A stretch of 64,000 bases of DNA from Candidatus Dormiibacterota bacterium. GTDB lineage: Bacteria > Chloroflexota > Dormibacteria > Aeolococcales > Aeolococcaceae. The notes under the pieces were generated by a model. That model was not told the origin of the DNA and ran no database searches. It saw only the letters and a program-made list of their open reading frames with translations. The DNA lies in NCBI GenBank assembly GCA_963717185.1, contig CAVQVY010000038.1, positions 24,565 through 88,564 on the forward strand, given 5' to 3'. Made by a program: the position numbers and the translations under genes. This document shows, piece by piece, positions 1,573 through 46,384 of this stretch. The first letter of the stretch is position 1; every line of letters begins with the position of its first letter.

Positions 1573-1727
1573 TCGCGCTCCCTGTTGGACTCAAACCGAG
1601 TCCGGGAAAATTTCCTTATGTTACTACGGACTCCTGACTCCCCAAACAAGTAACTGCATTCCGCCCGTCACACCTTTACAAATGGAAGCCGCTCTGCGAC
1701 TCTGGTGAGCGGATTGGGGGCCTTCAC

Positions 1728-4271
1728 TTGCGCAATCAAACGTTTCACAGCGCGGCTGTGTTGCTCTTTTCTCTTTGCTGTCTTCCTGCGGTCCCTCTTC
1801 AGGCACAGGCTCCAGTTCCTGACAGCCCAGCCATCGACCAGCGCGTGGATTCGATGATCTCCAAGCTCACACTCGAGCAAAAACTCGAACTCATCGGTGG
1901 CGTCGACAGCATGTTCATCCGCGCCGAATCTTCTGCTGGCTTCCCCATGCTCAAAATGAGCGACGGTCCGGAGGGCGTGCGCACCTGGGGTCCGGACACC
2001 GCTTACGCCGGCGGCATCGCGCTCGCCGCTGCCTGGGATCCGAAGCTCGCGAATGCTATGGGCGAGTCCATCGGCAAAGACGCGCGCGCGCGTGGCGTGA
2101 ATTTCATCCTCGGCCCCGGCGTCAACATCTATCGTGCTCCCATGTGCGGCCGCAACTTCGAATACTTCGGTGAAGACCCCTACCTCGCGGGCCAGACCGC
2201 CGCTGCCTACATCCGCGGCGTCCAGAACGAAGGAGTCATCGCCACCGTCAAGCATTTCGCCGCCAACAATCAGGAGTACGACCGCCACAACGTGAGCTCC
2301 GATCTGGACGAACGCACTCTGCGCGAGATCTACCTCCCCGCCTTTGAGGCCGCTGTCCAGCAGGGTCACGTCGGCGCCGTGATGAACAGCTACAACCTGC
2401 TGAACGGAACGCACGCTACCGAAAACAAGCACCTCAATCTCGACATCCTGAAGGGGGACTGGAAATTCGATGGCGTCCTCATGTCCGACTGGGATGCGAC
2501 CTACTCCTCCGTCGGCGGCGCAAACAACGGGCTTGACCTCGAAATGCCTTCCGGCAAATTCATGAACCCCCGGAACCTGTTGTCAGCGGTCAAGAGCGGC
2601 CAGGTTTCTGAAGCCACCATCGACGAAAAGCTCCGCCGCATCTTCCGCACTGCCATCCGCTTCGGCTTCCTCGATCGAGACCAGACCGATCACTCCCTTC
2701 CGCGTTTCAGCCAGGAAGGCCGCAATGTTGCGCTCCAGGAATCTCTGGAGAGCATCACGCTGCTCAAGAACGATGGCAATCTGCTCCCGCTCGATCCGGG
2801 CACTGTTCATACCCTCGCCGTGATCGGCCCGGATGCCTGGCCGGCGGTGCCGGGCGCGGGCGGCAGCTCCCACACCGACGCCTATGCGCCGGTTAGCATC
2901 ATGACCGGTCTCGCTGATACGCTGGCCGCCAAGGTCAAGGTCCTCTACGTTGCTGGTCTGCCCAAAGCCACGGAACTCATGCAGCAAACGGAGTTTTACG
3001 ACCCTTCCGGCAAGACGCCGGATAACCCCTGGACCGGATCGCAGGTTAAAGTCGAGACCTTCGACAATCCAAATCTAGCCGGCACGCCGACGGTTTCCTA
3101 CTTTCGGAGAATCGCGTCGTATCGATCCGAAGAGTGGACTCCGCCAGCGCCTCAGCACCGCAGCATGCGCGCCACGATGAAATACATGCCGCCCAAGACG
3201 GAGGATTACCTTTTCCTCGTCGGCGCCGGCGGCTCCGATGCGTACAAACTGATGGTCGACGGCAAGCCCGTCCTCGATCAGCCTACGCGCGAAGGTCAGG
3301 CGCCGCGCTATATTGAGATCCCCCTCACAGCCGGCCAGCCTGCCTCGATCGAACTCGACTACTGGCCCGACGCGACGAGCCTGCGCATCGGCCTCGGCAT
3401 TCGCGGTGTCGAAGAACTCGTCGATCCGGAAGCGAAGAAGATCGCCTCCCTGGCCGACGCAGCCGTTGTCGTTGTTGGATTCGATCCTTCAACGGAGAGC
3501 GAAGGCTTTGACCGCAGCTTTCAGCTTCCCTTCGGTCAGGACGAGCTCATTCAGACTGTCTCCCAGGCGAACCCGCACACGATTGTCAGCATCACAGCAG
3601 GCGGCAACGTCGACATGCATCGCTGGCTGTCCGGCGTGCCCGCGCTCCTGCACAATTGGTATCCCGGACAAGAGGGCGGCCGTGCGCTCGCGCAGATCCT
3701 CACTGGCCAGCATTCTCCGGAAGGCCATTTGCCGGTCAGCTTCGAGCGCTCGTGGGACGAGAATCCCGTGCACGATAGCTATTACGCCGCACCCGTACCG
3801 AAAGGCCAGACTCCGCATGTCGCCTATAAGGAAGGTGTCTTTGTTGGCTATCGTTACTACACCACGTACGACAAGCAGCCGCTCTTTCCCTTCGGCTTTG
3901 GCCTTTCCTACACAACGTTCGCATTCTCGAACCTGAAGGTTTCGCCCGCATCCGCTACGTCCGATGGCTCGATCACCATCTCCTTCGACGTCACCAACGC
4001 CGGGCAGCGCGAAGGCGCTACCGTTGCTCAGGTCTACGTCGGTGATCCCACAGCGAAAGTCAAGCGCCCGTCAAAAGAATTGAAGGGATTCGAGAAGGTT
4101 CGCCTCGGTCCGGGCGACACCCATCACGTCAGCATCGCGCTGGATCATCGCTCACTCGCGTACTGGAGCCTTGAAAAGAACGACTGGCAGGTCGATCCTG
4201 GTAAATTCATCGTTTTCGTCGGCGATTCATCCGCTAACACGCCCTTGACCCAGGATTTCCAGGTTCAGTGA
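1728..4271 (+). CDS. Glycoside hydrolase family 3 beta-glucosidase, probably secreted
   Basis: 847-aa ORF with GH3 motifs SDGPEGVR, GRNFEYFGEDPYL, KHFAANNQE and MSDWDA. It has a hydrophobic N-terminal signal-like segment (LLFSLCCLPAVPLQAQA). Confidence 0.88.
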   Translation: MRNQTFHSAAVLLFSLCCLPAVPLQAQAPVPDSPAIDQRVDSMISKLTLEQKLELIGGVDSMFIRAESSAGFPMLKMSDGPEGVRTWGPDTAYAGGIALAAAWDPKLANAMGESIGKDARARGVNFILGPGVNIYRAPMCGRNFEYFGEDPYLAGQTAAAYIRGVQNEGVIATVKHFAANNQEYDRHNVSSDLDERTLREIYLPAFEAAVQQGHVGAVMNSYNLLNGTHATENKHLNLDILKGDWKFDGVLMSDWDATYSSVGGANNGLDLEMPSGKFMNPRNLLSAVKSGQVSEATIDEKLRRIFRTAIRFGFLDRDQTDHSLPRFSQEGRNVALQESLESITLLKNDGNLLPLDPGTVHTLAVIGPDAWPAVPGAGGSSHTDAYAPVSIMTGLADTLAAKVKVLYVAGLPKATELMQQTEFYDPSGKTPDNPWTGSQVKVETFDNPNLAGTPTVSYFRRIASYRSEEWTPPAPQHRSMRATMKYMPPKTEDYLFLVGAGGSDAYKLMVDGKPVLDQPTREGQAPRYIEIPLTAGQPASIELDYWPDATSLRIGLGIRGVEELVDPEAKKIASLADAAVVVVGFDPSTESEGFDRSFQLPFGQDELIQTVSQANPHTIVSITAGGNVDMHRWLSGVPALLHNWYPGQEGGRALAQILTGQHSPEGHLPVSFERSWDENPVHDSYYAAPVPKGQTPHVAYKEGVFVGYRYYTTYDKQPLFPFGFGLSYTTFAFSNLKVSPASATSDGSITISFDVTNAGQREGATVAQVYVGDPTAKVKRPSKELKGFEKVRLGPGDTHHVSIALDHRSLAYWSLEKNDWQVDPGKFIVFVGDSSANTPLTQDFQVQ

Positions 4272-4356: not shown

Positions 4357-5253
4357 TCAGAGATTGTTAAACAAGCTTTGCTTGCCCAGGGTCGCGATCA
4401 CCTGGATTAGCGCCGTCTGCTGCGTTTCCGAAGTACTCAGTTGCGTCGCCACTTGTGCGACATCGGCCTGCAACAGCGTCGTCTGCGAAGCCGTTAGCTG
4501 GGTTGTTTCGCTTTGGTTATAGTTCTCCGCCGCCTGCAACCGGGAGAGTGAGTTGTCGATGAGCACGCGTTGCTGACTCACATGGCTCAACGCGGTACTC
4601 AGCGCCTGTGAATCTGTCTGGGCTGCTGTCGACGCCGATCCCGATGAGAAATCTGCAATCAAGGCATTCAATGTTCCCAGAACATCGGCTCCTGCCGCGG
4701 AGAATACCTGACCGCCGGGGAGATTCAGCTGGATCTTCTGCCCATTTGGCGTCTCCAAATATTGGATACCCGTATCTCCCTGATATGTCGCCACCGCCGG
4801 ACTCGCCGTCGAATTCAGCGTGTAGGGAGCTGTACTCCCCAAACTTCCAGAGAAGACGTGTTGGCCCAGATACATCGTGTTGGCCAAAGCCATCACCTCA
4901 TCCCGTATGCCGGACAACTGATTACTGATCGACTGCAAATCGTTCGCGTTAAGCGTGCCGTTATTACCCTGGGTTGCCAACGAAACTGCCGATGTCAGCT
5001 GATTCACCACCGTGCTCAGTGCCGAATCGGTGACCTGCAGCATACTTTGCGTCGAAGATGCAGTCTGCGAGAACGTGTCATCCCGCCCGATCTGTGCGCT
5101 CAGGACAACGTTTTGGCCGACCGCGATCGGATCGTCGCTCAAGGCGTTCACGCGCGAACCGCTGCTGAGTTCCTGGGTCAGGCGTGCCTGCGTGGCCGAC
5201 GTCGAGTCGAGCGATCCCACCAAATTGTTGAGGTACAGCGGATTGACCCTCAT
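4357..5253 (-). CDS. flgL: Flagellar hook-associated protein 3 (hook-filament junction protein)
   Basis: Flagellin-like N-terminus MRVNPLYLNNLVGSLDSTSATQARLTQELSSGSRVNALSDDP. A GAAGGAGA RBS precedes the ATG at 5253, so the track ORF start at 5328 looks over-extended. The gene lies directly downstream of flgK. Confidence 0.8.
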   Translation of the reverse strand: MRVNPLYLNNLVGSLDSTSATQARLTQELSSGSRVNALSDDPIAVGQNVVLSAQIGRDDTFSQTASSTQSMLQVTDSALSTVVNQLTSAVSLATQGNNGTLNANDLQSISNQLSGIRDEVMALANTMYLGQHVFSGSLGSTAPYTLNSTASPAVATYQGDTGIQYLETPNGQKIQLNLPGGQVFSAAGADVLGTLNALIADFSSGSASTAAQTDSQALSTALSHVSQQRVLIDNSLSRLQAAENYNQSETTQLTASQTTLLQADVAQVATQLSTSETQQTALIQVIATLGKQSLFNNL

Positions 5254-5302: not shown

Positions 5303-6727
5303 TCATGAGTAGCTCGACTGAACTCCAAGATTCAGGGAGGCGACCATCACCTGGTCGAGAATCGTGAATAACTTCGATGCTGCCTGGTACGCCTGTTCCA
5401 GCGTCTCCAGAGCTGCTGCCTCATCGTTGAGGTTGACCCCGGATATCGCTCCCATCTGATCCTGTAACTGCGTCAGCGCAGCTTGCTGGGCGGTGTTCTC
5501 CGTAGAAACCTGGGAGGTAAGACTCCCGAGAGTCGTCACCATATCGGAGAACCACGCCGTCGGCGAGATGCCGTTCACGATGCCTGCGTTCTGCTGGCTC
5601 GCCATGGTCACCGCATTGCTGTTGTCCAGCGGCCCTGCTCCCAGTGCCGCCGCCGCGATTTGTTTGGGATCCGTCATGATCACGGCAATCTGCACCGCCG
5701 ATCCCGCCGGATTCAGGGCCGTCGCTCCGGCGGGCAGGCTGAAAATCGCCCCTCCGGGATTGCCGCTCAGGTCCGAACCCTGCCCGTTCAGCGTATTCAT
5801 CTGCGTGGCCACCGAGTAGGCCAGCGTGTCCAGTGCACTGTTCACCTGTGGAATGTCCTGGTCACGCGCAGTGAGCATTCCGCCCAACTGCCCCCCTCCG
5901 CCGGTCAAATCCGCAGTGATGTCGGCACCCTGGCTGTCGAAATAGTGCGTCACTCCGCCCTTTTGGCCGGTTGTGATCGTGGCGGCGGTTCCCTGCGACA
6001 CCAGCAACGATCCATCCATCGTCGTCACGGTCAATCCGTTGTTCTCGGTGGGCACAGTGCGGATGCCGATCAGCTGCGACAGGTTCGTCAGATCCTGCTG
6101 GCGCTGATCTTCCAGCGTCCCGGCATCCTGATTCGGACCGATGGATTCGATCTGCAGATTGATCTGCGCGATGTTCTGCAGAATAGTGTTCGCCTGCTGG
6201 ATCACCGTGTTGCTCTCTGCGTTCAGGCCCTGCTGCTGCGTTTGCAACTGCGCAGCCGCTCCGTTGAAATCCTGCGCCAGGTTGGACGCCGCACTCAAAA
6301 CGTTCTGTCGTGAAGCCACATCCGAGGGATTCCCTTCCAGTGCTGCCAGCGAATTGAAGAGACCGGAGAGATCGCTGCCGATTCCGGAAGAAGAACTCGC
6401 GGTGGTTCCTGTCGCTCCGGCGAACAGAGCCTGAATCTGATTGAGCGCGCTCAGCCTCGCCGTCGAACCCGTTTGCACCTGCGTCTGCTGCTGCACTGCC
6501 TGCTCCAGCACCCGGTCCCGCTGCGATTGCGGCCCCGTCATCTGCACACCCATCCCGAATCTCGATCCGCCCAGCGATGTCGAGTCGCTCTCCACCCAAA
6601 CAGGCCTCTCCTGCGTGTATCCGGGGGTGTTCACATTGGCCGTGTTGTTCGCGATGATGTTGAGCGCCGCCTGGTCGGCCTCCAGCGCACCCGTCGCGAT
6701 GTGGAATGCTGTGCTAATCGTTGCCAT
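5303..6727 (-). CDS. flgK: Flagellar hook-associated protein 1
   Basis: 474-aa ORF. The N-terminus MATISTAFHIATGALEADQAALNIIANNTANVNTPGYTQE is the conserved FlgK/flagellar basal-body rod N-terminal motif. The C-terminal helical region matches the FlgK type. Confidence 0.85.
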   Translation of the reverse strand: MATISTAFHIATGALEADQAALNIIANNTANVNTPGYTQERPVWVESDSTSLGGSRFGMGVQMTGPQSQRDRVLEQAVQQQTQVQTGSTARLSALNQIQALFAGATGTTASSSSGIGSDLSGLFNSLAALEGNPSDVASRQNVLSAASNLAQDFNGAAAQLQTQQQGLNAESNTVIQQANTILQNIAQINLQIESIGPNQDAGTLEDQRQQDLTNLSQLIGIRTVPTENNGLTVTTMDGSLLVSQGTAATITTGQKGGVTHYFDSQGADITADLTGGGGQLGGMLTARDQDIPQVNSALDTLAYSVATQMNTLNGQGSDLSGNPGGAIFSLPAGATALNPAGSAVQIAVIMTDPKQIAAAALGAGPLDNSNAVTMASQQNAGIVNGISPTAWFSDMVTTLGSLTSQVSTENTAQQAALTQLQDQMGAISGVNLNDEAAALETLEQAYQAASKLFTILDQVMVASLNLGVQSSYS

Positions 6728-38613: not shown

Positions 38614-39039
38614 TCAGTTTTTATCTGACGGCGAGTCGCTACCCGTGATCTCACCTGCAGAAGTTGCAAGAAGAAAGTCTCGCCCGTCGGGCAACCTGAT
38701 ACTCGCGCCGTTTGCAGTCGGTGTGCCATTCTTAGCCCGATAGCCCTTAACGGTGACTTCGACGCCGGTCGGAAAGTCGGTTTTCCTAACCCCTTTTCTC
38801 AAGAGTGCGCCTGGTCCGCCGGTCTCAATCGCCCAAGTAACGACTTGGCTCTGTTCATTTTTCACGTCGACATAAATCCACCCATGGGGATTCACAAAGT
38901 CAAATTTCTTTAGGGTTCCTTTCAAGGTGACTGGCTGATTGATGTCGAACTCTGAGGTGAAAGAATGATGTGCGAATGCCGGCAGTGCGGCCACCAGAAT
39001 GCTCACAACAACTGGTAAGCGAGACAGCTTTCGTTTCAT
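38614..39039 (-). CDS. DUF6152-like small secreted protein
   Basis: A TAAGGAG RBS precedes the ATG at 39039. The signal peptide ends in PAFA, followed by HHSFTSEFDINQPVTLKGTLKKFDFVNPHGWIYVDV. This is the pattern I recall for DUF6152. Confidence 0.7.
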   Translation of the reverse strand: MKRKLSRLPVVVSILVAALPAFAHHSFTSEFDINQPVTLKGTLKKFDFVNPHGWIYVDVKNEQSQVVTWAIETGGPGALLRKGVRKTDFPTGVEVTVKGYRAKNGTPTANGASIRLPDGRDFLLATSAGEITGSDSPSDKN

Positions 39040-39451
39040 GGAATGCTCCTTAACTTTCATGGCCATAAGTTCTCGACTCATTACTCGAATATCTGACTCC
39101 GGGAACGAAAAGACTGCGCTGCCTTCAAACCACTGCGGGTAGCGCCGAGGGACATCGAACTATCGGTTGATTACCTCCACCGGGGTGGCCGCGGATTCTG
39201 AGCGGGCGTTCGCGTCCGCTCCTCTCGGACCGCTGATGTGACCCAGTCGGCGAATCATGCCTACCTCACCTCAAGTTGAATCGCGCCCACGCAGAATCGC
39301 CGCTACATGCCTGCTCGAAAAGATAATCGACTGTGTGCCACCGGAGATGATTCGCGCGACGTCTCGTCGACTTTCGGCCGTCACCTGGTGCCCATCACCG
39401 TCGGCGAGCTTTCCGTATTGCTGGGCCCCCCGCGAGTAATCCCATTGGCCG

Positions 39452-42400
39452 CTAGAAAACGACACGCACCGCTAACTCGCCTTGCTGTAATGGAAGCGCA
39501 GCGGTGAACGTTCCGAACGTGCCACCGGCGGTCGCCGACCCCGTAGATGCATTGGCCTGCTGTGTGGTACCAACTCCGCCATAGTTATTTGTACCGAGTA
39601 CGTTGAAGAGCTGACCGATGACTTGCAGCTTGAATCTTTCGCCGAGATCGATGTCTTTGCTGACGCGTGCGTCCAGCTGGTTGTAACGGTTGCTCTCAAT
39701 TTGTGACCGCGGGATCGGAGCCAGGCCTTTTGTAGCCCGCCACGCGTTGACGATTGCCAAAGTCTGGCCGATGTCGCGGGAGTTCTTACCCGTTCCCGGC
39801 ACGTAGTCGGTAATCGCTCCATCGTTGTTGAGGTCACCTCCAGCAAGCGCGCTGAAGGGCAATGAACTTCGCAAAGTCCAAATTGCCCCGACCGTGATCC
39901 GGTAACGCAGCAGCACCGAGCCGCTAACCACCAGGTTGTGACGACGGTCGGTGACAGCAAGTCCGTCATCTAACGAGGGATGGTAGAAGTCGGTGATGGC
40001 AGTGGTGCTGTTGTAGTTGTCAGTTTGTTTGGCCAGGGTGTACGAAACGACGTACTGGTAGCGTTTCGAGAAGCGTTTATCGAGACGAACGAAAAGTCCG
40101 CTGTAGTTGTAGTTTCCTATGGGCGCCGATTCATTGATTTGGCCGTAGGCCGGTAGAGGTCGTAGGCCGGTAAGCGGATTGGGCGTGTTGACGTTTTCGC
40201 TTACGACCAAGCCCTTCATATGCGTGAACAGGCCTTCTACGCTGAGTGCAAAGTCGGACTTGAACTGCCGCGCCACGCCGAGGTTGTAGGTAAAAACCTG
40301 TGGGTTATAAACGTTGTTAGCGTTGGTGCTGGTGTTGAGGGCTGATTGCGGATGAGCGGCGAGATATTGTTGGTAGGTTAGTCCATTATATGGATCTGGC
40401 CACGGGATAGGATTAGCGGTGGTACCTGTGATTGTGATCTGGGTTTGGCGGAGTGTTGTGATTTCGCCTTCGAATGCATTGTCTTGAAGATTTACATTAA
40501 CAATCCCAAATCCGCCCCGCACCACGGTGCGGCCGTCCTTCAAAGGGTCCCAAGCGAAGCCCATCCGCGGTGCAAGGTTATCGTAATCTCCGTGCCCCCC
40601 GAACTTAACGTAGGGCAGAGGCACTGGGTACAGCGACGCGCTCAGGTGATTCCGCCATACACCTGTTTGCAAATCGTAGCGGACGCCGAGATTGAGGGTC
40701 AGATTGGGCCGAACCTTCCACTCATCCTCGAAATAGAATCCCTGCATCAAGTTTTCGTCTTGCCAGTTGAGTTGTGGGAAGTTCGTGGTGAATTTAATTG
40801 GGGTGGCGCTGGCCACAGTCGTCCAGTTGAAGTTCGGATTTTGAGGATCAAAGGTTGGACTCGCCGCCGTTGGCTGGTAATCCTTCGCGAACGTCCATAC
40901 GCCTAGGGGAGTCGCCGGAGCATCGAGCTTTCTCGGAGTTCTCAGTTCATCCACACCGAATCTGAAGGTGTGCTGGGAGGCGGTCCTCGTCACATCGTCA
41001 CGGACCTCCTGATAGAACGGGTGAAACTCGGTGCTTTGATAGAATCCCCAAGTCAGATCCGGGAAATTGATCTGAATGCTGCCGTTGGCATATTGTGCGG
41101 GCGTGTTGAAATGGGGAGCCGTGCTGAGCTGCCAGGATTGAGCGACCTGCGCGGCGAACTGATTTACAGTCTTATCCGAAATCAACCAGCTATCGACCAG
41201 GGCGTATGTCCAGGACCTGACGCTTGAATCTCCGCTGCCGCTGAAAGCCGCAGCGTCTCCCCCATTGGCATTCTGAGCGTAGTTGGTGGCTGGGTTCTGT
41301 TCGGAAAATCGGAGAAAAGCACTGTTTTTGGGGCTGAATTGATAGTCGAGCCTTCCGAAATATTCTCGGAACAGAGCTCCGCCCCGGAAGCTGCCTTCGA
41401 GCGGCGCAAAGGCCGCAGTCACAGCGGGGCTTTTGCCGCCTCCCGGGGACACCGTGAAGTATTCCTGGTCATTTAGCTCTTCAAACGAAAACAGGAAATA
41501 AAGCCTGTCGTTCTGGATCGGGCCACCGATTTCGACACCATATTGGTTACGGCTGAAGGGTTGGATAGGGAATGCGGTTGGGTTGGAGTTATACTGCGCT
41601 TGAGTAATCGTATCCACTCGGTTGATGTAGTGGTCGCGGAAGTACTCGAAGGCCTCCCCATGTAGCTGGTTCGTACCGCCTTTCGAGGCCACCGTAACAA
41701 CGCCGGCCGCCCTTCCGCCATACTCAGCAGGGGCCTGGCCAAGAATCACCTTAAATTCCTGGACCACGGCCTCTTGCACCAGGTCGCGCGGGTCGCCATT
41801 CCCCGAGATAACGTTGCTCAGGCCATCCAGCAAATAGTTACTTCCAGCTGCATTGACTGCGCCAGCGCCAATGCTCGCCAGGGGTCTTGATACTCGTCCG
41901 ACATCGGGCGTTGTGCCTGGCTCCAAGAGGGCGAGCATCGCGACCTGGCGCTGCGTAATTGGTAAGGAATCGATCTGCTGCCGCTCCACCACCTCAGATG
42001 CCACCTCGCTGCTAGCGATCTCTACGACCGGGGCCTCGGATCGAACGGTAACCGTCTGTTCCACGCTACTAAGCTTGAGCGTGAGGTTCTGCGGAACCTC
42101 AAGGCCGATTGTGAGAACAAGGTCCTGTATCTCAACGGCTGCAAAGCCTTGTCGTTCGGCCTTCAAGTCGTAAGTGCCGGGAGGCAGCGGAGCCACGCGA
42201 TACTTTCCATCGTCTCCAGTTAGGCTTGTTCGCGTGAGCCCTGTTTCCGGATTTCTTACCGTCACGGTCACTCCTGGTTCTAGGGCGCCTTGCGCGTCGG
42301 TGATAGTTCCCAAGATGACAGCATCGGTCGACTGCGCCCCGGCCGAAACCACGCGCATAAAAATCCACACCGCTAGCACCGCAAATTGAAAGGCCGAATC

Positions 42401-42508
42401 CTCCAACAAGACGCGCCCGCGCCATGCCGCTTGCTTATAGAAACCGTCAGGCCGGTGCTGATTGAACTTTCCGAGGGTAAGTAGCTGGAAACTCTTGACT
42501 GCTGACAT
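39452..42508 (-). CDS. CarboxypepD_reg/TonB-dependent receptor (1018 aa from ATG 42508), Cys-free
   Basis: An AGGAGA RBS lies 8 nt before the ATG at 42508. The track start at 42679 lies inside an intrinsic terminator, so I reject it. GTITDAQGALEPGVTVTVRNPETGLTRTSLTGDDGKYRVAPLPPGTYDL is followed by plug and barrel. The C-terminus ends in ELAVRVVF. I found no Cys in the whole ORF. Confidence 0.85.
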   Translation of the reverse strand: MSAVKSFQLLTLGKFNQHRPDGFYKQAAWRGRVLLEDSAFQFAVLAVWIFMRVVSAGAQSTDAVILGTITDAQGALEPGVTVTVRNPETGLTRTSLTGDDGKYRVAPLPPGTYDLKAERQGFAAVEIQDLVLTIGLEVPQNLTLKLSSVEQTVTVRSEAPVVEIASSEVASEVVERQQIDSLPITQRQVAMLALLEPGTTPDVGRVSRPLASIGAGAVNAAGSNYLLDGLSNVISGNGDPRDLVQEAVVQEFKVILGQAPAEYGGRAAGVVTVASKGGTNQLHGEAFEYFRDHYINRVDTITQAQYNSNPTAFPIQPFSRNQYGVEIGGPIQNDRLYFLFSFEELNDQEYFTVSPGGGKSPAVTAAFAPLEGSFRGGALFREYFGRLDYQFSPKNSAFLRFSEQNPATNYAQNANGGDAAAFSGSGDSSVRSWTYALVDSWLISDKTVNQFAAQVAQSWQLSTAPHFNTPAQYANGSIQINFPDLTWGFYQSTEFHPFYQEVRDDVTRTASQHTFRFGVDELRTPRKLDAPATPLGVWTFAKDYQPTAASPTFDPQNPNFNWTTVASATPIKFTTNFPQLNWQDENLMQGFYFEDEWKVRPNLTLNLGVRYDLQTGVWRNHLSASLYPVPLPYVKFGGHGDYDNLAPRMGFAWDPLKDGRTVVRGGFGIVNVNLQDNAFEGEITTLRQTQITITGTTANPIPWPDPYNGLTYQQYLAAHPQSALNTSTNANNVYNPQVFTYNLGVARQFKSDFALSVEGLFTHMKGLVVSENVNTPNPLTGLRPLPAYGQINESAPIGNYNYSGLFVRLDKRFSKRYQYVVSYTLAKQTDNYNSTTAITDFYHPSLDDGLAVTDRRHNLVVSGSVLLRYRITVGAIWTLRSSLPFSALAGGDLNNDGAITDYVPGTGKNSRDIGQTLAIVNAWRATKGLAPIPRSQIESNRYNQLDARVSKDIDLGERFKLQVIGQLFNVLGTNNYGGVGTTQQANASTGSATAGGTFGTFTAALPLQQGELAVRVVF

Positions 42509-42663
42509 GAACTGATCTCCTGGCTTGAGCTGATCGGTTACCTCCAGGAGACTGGTGGGATGGCCGGAGTCGATTTTGCCTCCCCGGTCGGGGTCGGCTA
42601 GGGTGATGTCTCTGCGCTTTGTCGCCCGGCGGGTAGATAGCTCTGTGGGATTCTTGCGTCGGA

Positions 42664-42701
42664 AAAACAAAAAACCCACCTGCCGAGTGTTTGGCGGTGG
42701 G
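42664..42701 (-). terminator. Rho-independent terminator (CCCACCGCC-N8-GGCAGGTGGG then TTTTTTGTTTTT) downstream of micro-ORF P2 and upstream of the TonB receptor
   Basis: Read directly on the minus strand. The stem is 6+3 bp with one bulge, followed by an 11/12 T run. Confidence 0.7.
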
Positions 42702-42731
42702 TCCCTGGGCTACAGATCTTAAATCTAGCTG

Positions 42732-42818
42732 TTAAATTCTGCCCGCCTCAGAGAAGCCACACGCGCCGCATGTACAGCGGTTACAGGCTAGCGCGCGTCT
42801 CCGTGCGGCAAAAATCAT
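42732..42818 (-). CDS. Candidate leaderless Cys-rich micro-ORF P2 (28 aa): MIFAARRRALACNRCTCGACGFSEAGRI
   Basis: My own translation. It has 4 Cys in the pattern C-x2-C-x-C-x2-C. The ATG lies 7 nt after the -10 hexamer. The stop is 30 nt before the terminator stem. Confidence 0.45.
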   Translation of the reverse strand: MIFAARRRALACNRCTCGACGFSEAGRI

Positions 42819-42825
42819 GGAAGAG

Positions 42826-42854
42826 TTTATAGATGGACCGCGGTTGATTGTCAA
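42826..42854 (-). promoter_or_regulatory. Near-consensus sigma70 promoter TTGACA-17 nt-TATAAA (unit P2)
   Basis: Minus strand: TTGACA at 42854-42849 and TATAAA at 42831-42826. An A-rich tract (AATTTGAAAAAGG) lies upstream. Confidence 0.6.
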
Positions 42855-43026
42855 GCGCCTTTTTCAAATTCCAGTAAGGCGTACGTTGTCGCTCTGCTTC
42901 GAGCGTGCACGCAACAGCAGCTAAGCAACCTGAAGTGAATCAGCTTATGCTTCGCGCCACAAGTCGCCGGAGTCTACAAGCGGGCTTTGTCATCAACAAT
43001 CGGGAGACAAACTGAGACAAAACCTA

Positions 43027-43055
43027 TTGACTCGGAGATGGTCGTCTTGTATGGT
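43027..43055 (+). promoter_or_regulatory. Sigma70-type promoter TTGACT-17 nt-TATGGT (unit P3), divergent from P2
   Basis: Read directly. An A-rich tract lies upstream (GAGACAAACTGAGACAAAACC). An ATG follows 8 nt after the -10 element. Confidence 0.55.
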
Positions 43056-43063
43056 CGAATTCC

Positions 43064-43168
43064 ATGCGAGTCGGACTCCAAAGGATTTTACCGGGTGAGC
43101 AGTGTTGTCGCATCCCCTCGTGCGCACCGTGTTCCCTGGTTGTGGGGAGGCTAGTCCGAACGTTCTAA
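43064..43168 (+). CDS. Candidate leaderless Cys-rich micro-ORF P3 (34 aa): MRVGLQRILPGEQCCRIPSCAPCSLVVGRLVRTF (or a non-coding leader/sRNA)
   Basis: My own translation. It has 4 Cys including a tandem TGT TGT. The stop is 30 nt before the terminator stem, the same spacing as in P2. Confidence 0.4.
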   Translation: MRVGLQRILPGEQCCRIPSCAPCSLVVGRLVRTF

Positions 43169-43198
43169 GAACTTTCTTCTAGTCCAAAGGTCTCTTAG

Positions 43199-43239
43199 CC
43201 CACCGCCATAGGTTCATTGGCCGGTGGGTTTTTTCTTTT
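43199..43239 (+). terminator. Rho-independent terminator (CCCACCG-C-CCA loop TGG-C-CGGTGGG then TTTTTTCTTTT) between micro-ORF P3 and yezD
   Basis: Read directly. The 5' arm CCCACCGCC is identical to that of the P2 terminator. Confidence 0.75.
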
Positions 43240-43270
43240 ATGGCCTTGTTTTGTTTCCTTGAGGATTGGG

Positions 43271-43507
43271 ATGACGACGACCAAGTTGAATCCGAAAGTG
43301 GAGGAGCAAACAGCGCGGAACGACAAACTTCCGCCAGACGCAATTGAGTCTTTGCTCCAGAGTGACCAAGGACTTCTGTGGGAAGTGGTTCGGGCACTCA
43401 AAACGATTCAGTATGGCTCAATCGTGTTGACAATTCACAATGGCCAACTGGTCGAGGTTAGTAAAAACATCAGAATTCGCAGAAGTGAACCGAACAATGG
43501 GAAATAA
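43271..43507 (+). CDS. YezD/DUF2292-family small protein
   Basis: A GAGGA RBS precedes the ATG at 43271. ALKTIQYGSIVLTIHNGQLVEVSKNIRIR matches the YGSV.I.I.DG.VVQIE..EK.R signature of DUF2292. Confidence 0.7.
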   Translation: MTTTKLNPKVEEQTARNDKLPPDAIESLLQSDQGLLWEVVRALKTIQYGSIVLTIHNGQLVEVSKNIRIRRSEPNNGK

Positions 43508-43712
43508 TTCCATAGGGTGCTTTACCGTAGGTGGCGGATCTCTAGCAAAAACGGATTGCTTGACAGTACTTTATTCGCGCTCCGCCTTTCCATTTGTGAT
43601 CCCTTCTACTCGGTCGTGTTGTTGTCCCCCACAGCAATAGTGCTGGAGAGCGGGACGCGGGCGTGAGCAGACGACTGTAGCCGCAGGTTCTTCGAAATGT
43701 AACTTCCGCGAA

Positions 43713-43750
43713 GGCCCGTTTCCAGCATCTGGGAGCGGGCCTTTTGTTTT
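43713..43750 (+). terminator. Rho-independent terminator (GGCCCG...CGGGCC then TTTTGTTTT) between yezD and the first membrane paralogue
   Basis: Read directly. The extended imperfect stem is GGCCCGTTTCCAG/CTGGGAGCGGGCC. It lies 38 nt before the ATG at 43789. Confidence 0.65.
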
Positions 43751-43788
43751 GAGTCCATACCTACAGACTTTGGATTTCGGGCGGAACA

Positions 43789-44280
43789 ATGAACCTCATG
43801 CACTTGTGCCAATGGCTTAGCGAGACACCATTCGGAACTTCCATCCGGGAATCGCCATTTGCTTTTCCTTTCATCGAATCCGTTCATGTTCTGGGAATAA
43901 CCCTCTTGGTAGGCACCGTCGCGGTTGTAGATCTGCGTCTTCTAGGTGTGGTGATGAAAGACGAGCAGGTGTCAGAGATCGTGAGCCGAGTGTTGCCACT
44001 AACTTGGTGCGGGTTTCTCATTCAGGTTGTCAGCGGCTTGCTTCTGTTCTGGGCCAAGGCGGACGAATATTACCTTAATCCTGTGTTCCGTCTTAAATTG
44101 CTGCTGCTCCTGCTGGCTGGCCTCAACCCGCTAATCTTTCATTCCACTCTGTATCGAAGCGTTTCGGAGTGGAACGACAAGCAGACGACACCCGTTCTTG
44201 CAAAGGTCGCAGGGCTTTTCTCTTTGACGCTCTGGAGCGGCGTCATTGTCGTGGGAAGGGCCATTGCTTATTTCAAATAG
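43789..44280 (+). CDS. Small 4-TM membrane protein, paralogue 1 (possibly DUF6644)
   Basis: 163 aa. The motifs ...W(L)..TP.G..IR.S...(F)P.IE.VH.L...L.G....VDLRL.G and GRAI(A/G)(Y/F) are shared with the next gene. Confidence 0.65.
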   Translation: MNLMHLCQWLSETPFGTSIRESPFAFPFIESVHVLGITLLVGTVAVVDLRLLGVVMKDEQVSEIVSRVLPLTWCGFLIQVVSGLLLFWAKADEYYLNPVFRLKLLLLLLAGLNPLIFHSTLYRSVSEWNDKQTTPVLAKVAGLFSLTLWSGVIVVGRAIAYFK

Positions 44281-44793: not shown

Positions 44794-44854
44794 GAGCAAG
44801 TGGTAACCGATGTGAATCCTTTGAACTGCTGATCGATGAAGGGAGTTGCAACCT

Positions 44855-46035
44855 ATGGGAATGAGATTTTATTTTCGGTGGGCGACGATTCTTCTTACCT
44901 TGCTGGGCCTCTCAGGTTCGGTTCCTGCGCAGTCGGTGGCGGGTCTTTGGGAGGGCCATGTAAACATCGACGGATTGAGTATTCCATTTCAGCTCGAGAT
45001 TTCAGGGAACGGATCTGCCGTGAAAGGCGCATTCCTTAATGGAGACGAGAAAGTCACCTCCACTGGCGGCCGCTTTGAAAACGGTGCTGTGATTCTAGAT
45101 TTTGACGAGTACGCCGAAACCCTGCAAGCGACTCTGGAAAACGGCCAATTGACAGGCATGATCGAGGGTCGATTTGGCCCGGGGTCGCGCAAAGCGCTAC
45201 CGTTTGAGGCGAAACCTTTTGTTCACGCTCCGGAATCGGTGTCGAAAACGATCCCCTCGATTGACGGTATCTGGGAGATTGAGAACCACAGCCCCAAAGG
45301 CGAATCGGCATGGCGCTTCATTGTCCGCCAGGCCGGTGGCGATGTTTCTGCGGCAATTTTGCGGGTAGATGGCGACACGGGTACTCTGACCGGCCACTAC
45401 CACGACGGCAAATTCGCGCTGAGCCATTTCTCGGGCGAGCGCCCCTACTTGGTCGACGTAACTCCGCAAAGCGAAGGAACGATCCTGCTGACGCTTAGCG
45501 ATCGTTCCGGTAAGAAAGATCTGACCGCCTACCGCCCCGCCGCAGCGCGAGCCAAAGGACTGCCTGAACCAACCGACCCAAACCAGCACACGAAGGTTAA
45601 AGATCAAGCTCAGCCCTTCGAGTTCAAGTTTCGCGATGTCGACGGACACGTGGTTTCCAATACGGATTCCCGTTTCCGTGGAAAGGTGGTGCTGGTCAAC
45701 GTCACAGGTAGTTGGTGCCCCAATTGCCACGACGAAGCTCCATTTCTCGCGGGGCTTTATCGCAAATACCGCAATGCAGGACTGGAAATCGTGGCGCTCG
45801 ATTTTGAAGAGCCCGAGCAGCTTGAGGATCTGACGAGATTGCGGGCTTTCGTCGCGCACTATGGAATCGAATACACCGTGCTAGTGGGCGGAACCCCTGA
45901 GCAGGTCAACCAAAAGATTCCGCAACTGGCGAATCTGAACGCCTGGCCCACGACCGTCCTGGTGGGGCGGGATGGGCTCGTCAAAGGAGTTCACGTCGGA
46001 TTCGCTAGTGCCGCCAGCGGTGAGTTTAACAAAGT
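44855..46035 (+). CDS. TlpA-like thiol:disulfide oxidoreductase with large N-terminal domain; 3' end cut off at the compositional junction
   Basis: A signal-like N-terminus is followed by GKVVLVNVTGSWCPNCHDEAPFLAGLYRKYRNAGLEIVALDFEE...AWPTTVLVGRDGLV, a thioredoxin fold with CxxC. After ...ASGEFN (about 46035) the same reading frame runs into unrelated high-GC sequence. Confidence 0.7.
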
Positions 46036-46129
46036 ACGACGAAGCAGCCCGCACCCTGCCCCAACCGGAGACGCAGACCCAGGAGCGTCCGCCGTCGATC
46101 GCGGTCACGACGAACCAGCGGACGCCGGC

Positions 46130-46384
46130 GATGATCCCTTCCGGGTCACCCGGCTCATTGCCAAGCAGGGCACGGTGGGCTTCGCTTGGCGCGTGTACAG
46201 CCTCGGGCGACGCTTCGCCCACCGCGAGGTCACCATCGTGGCCGAGGACGACGTGGTGCGCTTCTATCTCGGCGATGTCCTGGTCCGAACCCACCCACGC
46301 GGCGAGCACGGAAGCTACGTCAAAGCGACCATACGAACGGAGGTGATCCGCCGAAAAACCCTGCCTCGAACAGCTGTCAATTGA
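46130..46384 (+). mobile_element. Transposase/integrase (rve-type) C-terminal fragment
   Basis: FRVTRLIAKQGTVGFAWRVYSLGRRFAHREVTIVAEDDVVRFYLGDVLVRTHPR resembles the beta-barrel C-terminal domain of IS481/IS21/IS3-type DDE transposases. No catalytic core is present. Confidence 0.45.

Follow-up and report, generated by a model that had tools for sequence, protein, structure and literature searches.

Introduction

Classical ribosome-mediated attenuators are the trpL, hisL, thrL, leuL, ilvL and pheL leaders of the enterobacterial amino-acid operons, and cysteine lies outside this set. Here we describe a 64,000-nucleotide stretch of DNA (contig CAVQVY010000038.1 of GenBank assembly GCA_963717185.1; the whole stretch is referred to as the window) in which two divergent leader units, designated A and B, stand in front of a TonB-dependent receptor gene and a yezD-like gene, respectively. 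Each unit consists of a promoter, a short cysteine-rich open reading frame (ORF) and an intrinsic terminator. Judged from sequence and modelled folds, both units very probably attenuate transcription by a ribosome-mediated mechanism in which cysteine is sensed via the availability of charged tRNA-Cys, and they belong to a large family present in soil Acidobacteria. A preliminary description of this DNA had proposed leader-peptide attenuation with Cys as the sensed residue, and the proposal is now supported by recurrence of the family, a sulfur regulon, codon signatures and predicted 1:2, 2:3 and 3:4 folds.

Cysteine-responsive leaders have been described or predicted in other bacteria. In M. 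smegmatis, polycysteine leaderless small ORFs act as translational attenuators and constitute a 'Cys ribulon' (Canestrari et al. 2020, 10.1101/834739). At Ms5788A, the one locus dissected, the stalled ribosome frees a sequestered ribosome-binding site; control is translational and there is no intrinsic terminator (10.1101/834739). In Rhodobacterales, the uORFC-8-2 motif before cysS is a predicted ribosome-mediated attenuator with tandem Cys codons and a terminator stem followed by a U-run (Brewer et al. 2021, PMC8632094). Candidate Cys leader peptides before cys/cbs operons were proposed in Actinobacteria by comparative genomics (Seliverstov et al. 2005, PMC1262725). As for Acidobacteria, almost no attenuator predicted there in a 2010 survey had an associated function (PMC2965389).

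The units described here resemble the classical attenuators in that codons for the amino acid under control are over-represented in a short ORF, which precedes genes that supply this amino acid. Folding likewise predicts four RNA segments with the alternative pairings 1:2, 2:3 (the antiterminator) and 3:4 (the intrinsic terminator), with the stop codon placed such that a terminating ribosome would mask segment 2. Unlike the classical attenuators, the acidobacterial family would sense Cys, and its leader ORF has no Shine-Dalgarno sequence and is apparently leaderless, the ATG lying 6-11 nt past the -10 element. It would control uptake and scavenging genes (TonB-dependent receptor, yezD, rhodanese) besides biosynthetic ones, and one chassis would serve two amino-acid specificities in a large number of operons. 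The family belongs to the phylum Acidobacteriota and is matched by no Rfam leader.

With the mycobacterial system the units share Cys-tract small ORFs, apparently leaderless in the acidobacterial case, upstream of cysteine or sulfur operons, and a presumed regulon-like coordination of several loci by Cys-codon stalling without a transcription factor. There is no apparent sequence homology, the phylum is different, and the acidobacterial units have their Cys tract in the middle of the ORF, followed by a conserved tail, whereas that of mycobacterial Rv2334A at least is C-terminal. Each canonical acidobacterial unit closes with a strong intrinsic terminator and has an antiterminator that competes with it; control is therefore proposed to be transcriptional. 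The mycobacterial trait of at least two consecutive Cys codons is present in units B and C (the latter a third unit of the window, described below) and in most family members, but absent in unit A. The uORFC-8-2 motif similarly has tandem Cys codons in an upstream ORF and a terminator stem with a U-run. However, it is confined to the region before the cysteinyl-tRNA synthetase gene cysS of a single alphaproteobacterial order, does not form a multi-operon regulon, has not been described as leaderless, and has two Cys codons, mostly UGC, as compared to 3-11, mostly UGU, in the acidobacterial family. No sequence relation between the two was detected by Rfam scan, either at the gathering threshold or at E values up to 10. 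The actinobacterial candidates are also short Cys-run ORFs ahead of cysteine-biosynthesis operons, but are without a conserved terminator hairpin, Rho-dependent termination having been proposed for them, whereas the acidobacterial units have terminator, antiterminator and protector segments.

A Cys version of an attenuator had been called unusual in the preliminary description. Given the precedents in 10.1101/834739 and PMC8632094, this holds only for the leaderless-plus-terminator regulon form, which we did not find in databases or literature: the acidobacterial family is described neither in Rfam, Pfam and NCBIfam nor in the searchable full-text literature. What is new is the combination of leaderless sensor ORFs with a classical intrinsic terminator and antiterminator, the multi-operon reach over sulfate assimilation and scavenging genes including a TonB-dependent receptor, and an apparently modular chassis common to Thr/Ile attenuators.

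Organization of units A and B

The analysis was computational throughout and used sequence anatomy, conservation, the link to sulfur genes, codon signatures and predicted folds. All the elements that the preliminary description had assigned to units A and B were found at the positions given there, by reading of the sequence, by small-ORF listing and by a promoter-plus-ORF script. They are as follows.

42826-42854, minus strand: unit A promoter, -35 TTGACA (42854-42849), 17 nt, -10 TATAAA (42831-42826), read from the sequence
42732-42818, minus strand: unit A leader ORF MIFAARRRALACNRCTCGACGFSEAGRI, ATG at 42818, 28 codons, probably leaderless, 7 nt from -10 to ATG
42757-42767, minus strand: unit A candidate antiterminator strand GGCGCGUGUGG (segment 2), its partner being the terminator 5' arm CCCACCGCC (ViennaRNA folds)
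42664-42701, minus strand: unit A intrinsic terminator (segments 3 and 4), CCCACCGCC-AAACACTC-GGCAGGTGGG plus TTTTTTGTTTTT, loop N8 (full-length minimum free energy (MFE) folds)
43027-43055, plus strand: unit B promoter, -35 TTGACT (43027-43032), 17 nt, -10 TATGGT (43050-43055)
43064-43168, plus strand: unit B leader ORF MRVGLQRILPGEQCCRIPSCAPCSLVVGRLVRTF, ATG at 43064, 34 codons, probably leaderless, 8 nt from -10 to ATG
43136-43147, plus strand: unit B candidate antiterminator strand CUGGUUGUGGGG (segment 2), counterpart of the family consensus CUGGCGCGGGG
43199-43239, plus strand: unit B intrinsic terminator, CCCACCGCC-loop-GGCCGGTGGG plus TTTTTTCTTTT (RNAfold)

The unit A ORF has Cys at codons 12, 15, 17 and 20, in the pattern C-x2-C-x-C-x2-C, and stops with TAA at 42734-42732. 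In the unit B ORF, whose stop codon ends at 43168, Cys is encoded at codons 14 and 15 (tandem TGT TGT), 20 and 23. The spacer between stop codon and terminator is 30 nt in both. The distance from -10 to start codon, 7 nt in A, 8 nt in B, 7 nt in C and 6-11 nt family-wide, together with the absence of a Shine-Dalgarno sequence, is compatible with a 5' untranslated region (UTR) of 0-4 nt. Among the 45 Cys-rich short ORFs of the window, only those of units A and B showed this promoter geometry with the start near +1 in the promoter-plus-ORF script. The sequence GGTGGGTTTTTT occurs in the window at two sites only, in units A and B, against 0.12 expected. The covariance model R1, built from 97 units with the window excluded, matched in the window only unit A (42663-42785, E 4.4e-14) and unit B (43100-43240, E 1.4e-11). 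Both terminator hairpins were predicted by RNAfold; a simple terminator scan missed them because each has a bulge. No Rfam family was detected at the gathering threshold anywhere in the whole window, and at E values up to 10 the region 42400-43400 gave only sub-threshold, terminator-driven look-alikes. No promoter-like site was found between terminator A and the start of the receptor gene.

Occurrence of the family outside the window

A metagenome scan with the fixed shared terminator sequence returned at least 120 loci (designated L with a number), and the family counts rest on the matches listed. A promoter of the form TTGnnn, 16-18 nt, TAnnn[T/A], placed 4-11 nt before an in-frame short-ORF start, was present at 105 of the 126 terminator matches listed (loci plus window). 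These 105 listed matches comprised 102 unique units, 99 of them with 3-11 Cys. Across these 102 units the modal ORF length was 30 codons and the modal stop-to-terminator spacer 30 nt (mostly 26-32 nt), and the promoter-adjacent ATG was in frame with the stop in 95, the other two frames accounting for 0 and 1. The leader peptides average 21% Cys, with variable number (3-11) and spacing; most carry consecutive Cys runs, from CC to CCCCCCC, while 23 of the 102 are 4-Cys units. An intrinsic terminator with U-tract was found behind every canonical unit. None of the leader peptides matched a Pfam or NCBIfam family above threshold. Routine gene calling is likely to miss the ORFs, which have 24-34 codons; annotation of soil metagenomes would benefit from a covariance model.

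Comparison of related intergenic regions, which the preliminary description had put forward as a check, showed that the Cys-rich ORF, its frame and the terminator recur. Orthologues of the receptor were fetched via the protein, so that this sample is unbiased for the RNA, and a leaderless poly-Cys ORF was present upstream in 10 of the 12 loci. In L005, L006 and L007 the arrangement is TTGACA, 17 nt, TAnnnA, 7-9 nt, ATG and a 28-34-codon ORF with 4-7 Cys, the stop lying 26-30 nt ahead of the terminator CCCACCGCCAG...GGTGGGTTTTTTGTTTT. Orthologues of unit A precede yezD-receptor genes or the receptor gene in these three loci and in L129 (e.g. MIFYAEKATRVCCFCTSGVCVSSGVWRLQV), and L128 carries a unit too; the design is kept at 62-70% divergence of the receptor protein. 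L129 also has a divergent pair of units as in the window, at 1696-1826 (minus strand) facing TauD (taurine dioxygenase) and at 2176-2335 (plus strand) facing the receptor. The only loci free of a Cys ORF among the 12 were L003 and L004, whose receptors are paralogues or orthologues at about 48% identity; these have a promoter and a 7-codon Cys-less ORF, and no element.

Cluster-mates at 90% identity or more were named Candidatus Acidoferrales, Candidatus Polarisedimenticolia and 'Acidobacteria bacterium', and relatives of the receptor and of the DUF6644 protein include metagenome-assembled genomes (MAGs) of Acidobacteriaceae, Terriglobales and Candidatus Acidiferrales. As the named relatives are all acidobacterial, the family is taken to be acidobacterial.

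A second type of leaderless poly-Cys ORF was seen before receptor orthologues of Acidobacteriaceae MAGs (e.g. MRLLTLCCMRLSYATPCRSLCCANIAVLSL, MRRMLCCLCLSSATPCRKLCCAHNGTLCCARAAGFSL), at L001 3716-3845, L002 3660-3790, L130 ~2685-2825 and L131 ~2680-2805. It has no intrinsic terminator and is followed by a 75-250-nt UTR; the ORF of L002 differs from that of L001 by an in-frame 3-nt deletion. By analogy with mycobacteria, these ORFs may act on translation or through Rho, and may be nearer to the mycobacterial design.

Genes downstream of the units

The first co-oriented ORF past each terminator was clustered, and representatives were scanned against Pfam and NCBIfam. Among the matches listed, the first downstream genes were:

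Rhodanese / 3-mercaptopyruvate sulfurtransferase: 31 loci
NirA/Sir-type sulfite reductase: 28 loci
CysD (with CysN next in L015): 20 loci
Siroheme synthase CysG: 5 loci
TonB-dependent receptor: 4 loci

Other first genes encoded SsuA, an Ssu/Tau-type ABC ATPase, TauE and a single-domain rhodanese, and almost all first genes behind Cys-type units were sulfur genes. DUF2292/yezD came first after poly-Cys units in L031, L125, L005 and L007, as well as after unit B. The downstream genes are co-oriented with the terminator and usually start 16-100 nt, often 16-50 nt, past it. These associations support the reading of the downstream genes as a putative sulfur-assimilation and sulfur-scavenging regulon.

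The same terminator and an 'SGxG' tail were also found behind ORFs rich in Thr, Ile, Ser and Lys, before genes for aspartate kinase (11 loci listed) and before asd, encoding aspartate-semialdehyde dehydrogenase. Such leaders (for example MSLTTKRIAATSSTTTTSITITSITSTSTKSTTFASGAWRN, MKRITIAMPTRITCLLGEGVW and ...TTIVVTITVTTTVTTSASGDGRNG) occur in L014, L029 (plus strand), L045, L046, L052, L072, L087, L094, L102, L116, L118 and L127, and before asd in L051. They look like a thr-type attenuator on the chassis of the Cys units, and their position before aspartate kinase echoes the thrL-thrA arrangement of E. coli. The amino acid enriched in the leader tracks the downstream pathway, as ribosome-mediated attenuation predicts and as a model based on peptide function or on a small RNA (sRNA) does not.

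Codon-level signatures

Cys was encoded in the leaders by TGT 397 times and by TGC 202 times (66% TGT), and in the downstream genes, with a mean GC content at third codon positions of 0.69, by TGT 43 times and by TGC 371 times (10% TGT). The leaders therefore favour the locally rare Cys codon. This bias could be due to slower wobble decoding, which would sharpen the sensor, or to avoidance of GC-rich pairing. The 5' halves of the units are highly variable except for the Cys codons. The conserved C-terminal 'V-S-S-G-A-G-R-L' corresponds to the conserved RNA UCU GGC GCG GGG AGG CUG, in which the third codon positions paired in the antiterminator (-22, -19 and -13) are 93%, 86% and 89% conserved, as compared to 49% for the third position at -16, which lies in the internal loop of the antiterminator. 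The Cys codons cluster 13-21 codons ahead of the stop; the footprint of a ribosome stalled on them would stop right before the strand at -23..-13.

These signatures bear on what the units are. The preliminary description had named as alternatives stand-alone genes for small CxxC peptides and sRNAs; both are disfavoured by the variable Cys spacing, the Thr/Ile relatives, the conservation of frame and the placement in cis. Stand-alone genes could encode small Cys-rich peptides that are metal- or redox-active, metallothionein-like, or precursors of ribosomally synthesised and post-translationally modified peptides or of thiazole/oxazole-modified microcins (TOMMs), with sulfur genes as neighbours through co-function and not through cis-regulation. 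Each unit indeed has its own promoter and terminator, the Cys content of the peptides is high, and in composition they weakly resemble the streptolysin S TOMM family, below threshold (E 0.0014; 18.5 bits, cutoff 35). Moreover, leader peptides can work in trans, as is reported for peTrpL (PMC7298713). We nevertheless regard such peptide genes as extremely unlikely. The number and spacing of Cys are not conserved, homologues of the unit C type keep only the start and Cys codons in frame and stop at four positions, and the 'SGAGRL' tail is conserved at synonymous sites matching the RNA helix. No modification-enzyme or metal gene is nearby, the neighbours being CysD, Sir, CysG and rhodanese; a Cys-peptide function would not account for the Thr/Ile-rich leaders that share the chassis ahead of aspartate kinase; a downstream gene 16-50 nt past the terminator has no room for a promoter of its own; and no peptide family was matched above threshold in Pfam or NCBIfam.

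The units could also be primarily trans-acting sRNAs of ~125-180 nt from promoter to terminator, in which the reading frames are incidental or secondary. Their compact promoter-to-terminator layout, with ends formed by a stable hairpin and a U-tract, would suit this, and weak sub-threshold Rfam matches (nse_sRNA, RybB, Qrr) were obtained, which arise from the terminator. Terminated attenuator RNAs can also act in trans, as is reported for rnTrpL (PMC7968998). However, the units always lie directly upstream of, and co-oriented with, a gene of the matching pathway, the in-frame ATG is kept in 95 of the 102 units listed, the rare-codon bias is specific to Cys codons, the 5' halves vary apart from these codons, and nothing reached the Rfam gathering score. 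A primary sRNA function is thus very unlikely, although the terminated leader RNA may have a secondary role in trans.

Predicted alternative folds

RNAalifold with default settings on MAFFT alignments saw the terminator only, and individual sequences were therefore folded with ribosome masks and shuffle controls. A stalled ribosome was modelled by masking 12 nt past the A-site codon and ending the RNA after the terminator 5' arm; dinucleotide shuffles served as controls. In this stalled state, 8 or more of the 11 bases in the 5' arm were paired with the strand at -23..-13 in 77% of the units, as compared to 17% of the shuffles, mostly through CUGGCG (-23..-18) and GGG (-15..-13). The predicted antiterminator helix encloses a hairpin with the stop codon in its loop, which was predicted in 93 of 99 units representing 85 distinct 5' strands (mean z-score -1.0). 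With no ribosome present, the G-rich antiterminator strand paired upstream with the N-terminal codons (mean 7.6 of 11 bases), often at a CCnCAGAAG 'QK' motif; this 1:2 duplex averaged -18.4 kcal/mol against -13.5 for the shuffles, and was seen in units A, B and C. The terminator was present in the full-length MFE fold of 97 of 99 units. The predicted folds thus match the classical scheme of a 1:2 protector, a 2:3 antiterminator and a 3:4 terminator.

When the RNAfold check suggested in the preliminary description was carried out, terminator and antiterminator structures that exclude each other were predicted for both units A and B of the window. The G-rich antiterminator strands picked there by eye were borne out, as ViennaRNA pairs both with the terminator 5' arm when a ribosome sits on upstream Cys codons. 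For unit B, 43136-43147 paired with 43199-43209, with 9 of 11 arm bases paired for a stall at Cys14, Cys15 or Cys20 and only 4 of 11 for a stall at Cys23, and the terminator formed with the ribosome at the stop codon. The antiterminator duplex had a calculated energy of -15.2 kcal/mol in unit B and of -14.3 kcal/mol in unit A. In these models unit A also fits attenuation, less cleanly than unit B.

Alternative structures of this kind, with the same terminator and antiterminator, could also serve a switch that needs no ribosome, that is, a riboswitch, a protein-binding leader sensing a sulfur metabolite or the target of a regulator, with the ORF left untranslated. That translation of the ORF is only inferred is in keeping with this. 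Still, no conserved structure resembling a ligand pocket was found, the region upstream of the antiterminator strand varying in sequence and length except for the Cys codons, and no Rfam family matched. The distance between the -10 element and the in-frame start codon is fixed, the swap from Cys to Thr/Ile codons follows the pathway, and the stop-to-terminator distance, fixed at 26-32 nt, makes sense only as a ribosome footprint. We give a ribosome-independent switch a very low probability, while promoter-level regulation by some regulator may coexist with attenuation.

Proposed mechanism

Ribosome-mediated attenuation by cysteine, which we favour for units A and B, would work as follows. A constitutive sigma-70-type promoter would start transcription at or a few bases from the start codon, and it is therefore proposed that the short ORF is translated as a leaderless mRNA. 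In the absence of a ribosome, segment 1 (the N-terminal codons) would pair with segment 2, the G-rich strand of consensus CUGGCGCGGGG that encodes the conserved 'SGAG' tail, the terminator (3:4) would form and transcription would stop. When cysteine is plentiful, the ribosome would reach the stop codon, fixed 26-32 nt ahead of the terminator, and mask both segment 2 and the hairpin around the stop codon; pairing of the 5' arm CCCACCGCC(AG) with the 3' arm would follow, and RNA polymerase would terminate at the U-tract. When charged tRNA-Cys is scarce, the ribosome would stall on the Cys codons, 13-21 codons before the stop, occupying segment 1 and freeing segment 2. Free segment 2 would then pair with the terminator 5' arm around the stop-codon hairpin, and this antiterminator would allow read-through into the genes for the TonB-dependent receptor and DUF6152 (unit A), into yezD (unit B) and possibly into the DUF6644 operon (unit C). 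We infer, in this scheme, the transcription start at the ATG, translation of the ORF, stalling at Cys codons and regulated read-through.

A number of observations weigh against this interpretation. Its support is wholly in silico, and no documentation of leaderless translation in Acidobacteria was found in the searchable literature. Unit A is atypical, with four dispersed Cys codons and no tandem pair. Its full antiterminator (9 of 11) formed only for a stall at Cys12, a stall at Cys15, Cys17 or Cys20 giving 4, 0 and 2 of 11, respectively, and Cys17 and Cys20 lie within the antiterminator strand. Unit C has a mutated -10 element and, owing to a 1-nt insertion, an ORF that ends early, immediately ahead of its antiterminator strand. 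Not every unit precedes a sulfur gene: that of L124 (MSRPVQTMMRRMMCCICWRRVSSGGQSGQS, 1426-1556) is followed by a cold-shock-domain gene at 1569-1829. The RNAalifold consensus recovered the terminator and not the antiterminator. Covariation of the two is untestable in the metagenome set because the search pattern fixed the sequence of the arm. Variants with an altered arm (unit C, L128, L132, L134, L138 and L074 plus strand at 6014 before CysD) do pair the antiterminator strand with their own arm at a predicted -12 to -20 kcal/mol, but their cross-energies give a matrix that is diagonal only in part, since G-rich strands will pair with C-rich arms in general. The variants are consistent with three-way covariation and are not proof of it.

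Beyond the window, the wider proposition is that in Acidobacteriota a regulon for sulfur assimilation and organosulfur scavenging (including the TonB-dependent receptor, yezD/DUF2292, DUF6152 and DUF6644) is governed for the most part by a modular attenuator chassis read by ribosomes, in place of a dedicated transcription factor. A leaderless sensor ORF would be joined to one conserved antiterminator/terminator platform, with specificity reset by codon swap, sulfur genes having Cys leaders and aspartate kinase and asd having Thr/Ile leaders. We regard the case for and against this proposition as evenly balanced. If true, it would amount to a phylum-scale 'ribulon' with transcriptional output, whose expression platform is reused as those of riboswitches are. 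The family itself brings together two ideas that were previously apart, leaderless poly-Cys sensor ORFs as in mycobacteria and attenuation at an intrinsic terminator in the classical manner, and it suggests that one RNA platform can be re-targeted through codon content alone. Acidobacteria are a dominant soil phylum whose gene regulation is almost uncharted, and the family offers a concrete sulfur-assimilation regulon. Membership among Cys-attenuated genes is also a functional clue for yezD/DUF2292, DUF6152, DUF6644 and the TonB-dependent receptor, and points to outer-membrane uptake of organosulfur compounds.

Unit C

Where the preliminary description recognised two units, the window holds three. 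Unit C, found by reading the sequence, occupies part of the interval from the end of yezD (43507) to the start of DUF6644 (43789).

43560-43751, plus strand: unit C, third unit
43560-43565, plus strand: -35 TTGACA, followed after 17 nt by a weak -10 CGCCTT (43583-43588) and after a further 7 nt by GTG at 43596
43596-43640, plus strand: ORF (V)IPSTRSCCCPPQQ, with TGT TGT TGT at 43617-43625 and TAG at 43638-43640
43643-43654, plus strand: candidate antiterminator strand CUGGAGAGCGGG
43713-43751, plus strand: terminator GGCCCGTTTCCAG-CAT-CTGGGAGCGGGCC plus TTTTGTTTTG, 15 bp with U-tract

The simple terminator scan detected this terminator, and model R1 did not detect the unit. With a ribosome stalled on the CCC codons, the fold had an 11-pair antiterminator (7 plus 4 pairs with one bulged G), and otherwise it showed 1:2 pairing plus the terminator. 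Homologues of unit C occur before a TonB-dependent receptor gene (L128) and before DUF6152/DUF6644 operons (L132-L136 and L138-L140); the latter have good promoters (-10 TAGATT, TACATT, TACCTT, TAAGGT) and the leaderless layout. Only their start and Cys codons stay in frame, the stop codon being found at four different positions. Unit C is probably a third attenuator of this kind, although the function of the copy in the window is uncertain: transcription from the unit B promoter may pass through it as the second of two successive attenuators, or the copy may be in decay and do no more than terminate the yezD transcript.

The clearly decayed -10 element and frame of unit C raise the question whether units A and B are themselves decayed or chance copies, just promoters plus leaky terminators now, of a family that is real elsewhere. 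Both have four Cys codons where other members have up to 11, and unit A, without tandem Cys codons, has a narrow stall window. But four Cys is also the number in 23 of the 102 unique units listed, and two consecutive Cys codons sufficed for regulation in mycobacteria (10.1101/834739). Units A and B retain promoter, frame, 30-nt spacer, antiterminator strand and terminator, and the orthologues of unit A keep the design at 62-70% receptor divergence. Decay or chance is hence an extremely improbable account of units A and B, for which we retain cysteine-sensing attenuation.

Genes and other features adjoining the units

Pfam agreed with the flanking TonB-dependent receptor and yezD genes named in the preliminary description. 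The genes assigned by Pfam next to the three units are:

39452-42508, minus strand: TonB-dependent receptor gene of acidobacterial type (CarboxypepD_reg plus OMP_b-brl_4), behind unit A
38614-39081, minus strand: DUF6152 gene, next after the receptor
43271-43507, plus strand: yezD-like gene (DUF2292, PF10055), ATG at 43271, first gene past unit B, 31 nt from its terminator
43789-44280, plus strand: DUF6644 membrane-protein gene, 37 nt past the unit C terminator
44846-46384, plus strand: AhpC/thioredoxin-fold gene, downstream of DUF6644

DUF6152, DUF2292/yezD, DUF6644 and the AhpC/thioredoxin-fold protein are repeatedly found with the receptor, either downstream of Cys-type leaders or as members of the loci that contain it, which suggests that they are part of a sulfur-scavenging module. 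In relatives, the receptor neighbourhoods contain DUF6152, an SsuABC-like transporter, TauD, TauE, SrpI-like protein, rhodanese and cysteine desulfurase, as well as Cys_Met_Meta_PP, cysteine dioxygenase (CDO), a metallo-beta-lactamase-fold protein and AhpC/Redoxin. The window genes for the receptor, yezD and DUF6644 are tied to sulfur by their association with loci holding TauD, TauE, SsuABC, rhodanese and CDO. A literature search on yezD/DUF2292 gave nothing useful.

The receptor start at ATG 42508 is supported by a 1018-aa database protein and by an AGGAGA ribosome-binding site. A mechanical ORF list gave GTG 42679 as its start (39452-42679), which overruns the unit A terminator, and this was rejected in favour of ATG 42508. 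Over-long gene calls of this sort could hide such attenuators.

The 10-bp palindrome GCGTGCACGC at 42903-42912, to which the preliminary description had drawn attention, is present between the promoters of units A and B and is not significant. As an operator it was rejected: there is one exact copy, copies with 1 mismatch number 8 against 7.3 expected, and it is absent from the divergent locus L129. Tandem Cys codons at 45085 with a hairpin lie inside a coding region and were treated as chance.

Past the attenuator, the 5' UTR of the receptor (~42512-42553, minus strand) has a conserved hairpin formed between GUCUCCUGGAGG and the Shine-Dalgarno region CCAGGAGA, and ahead of it a small conserved CCCC...GGGGAGG hairpin. 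The same UTR hairpin was found at L005 ~4955-5000, L007 ~4955-5000, L128 ~2955-3000 and L129 ~2430-2475, also where yezD intervenes between attenuator and receptor. This hairpin could provide a second, translational layer of control.

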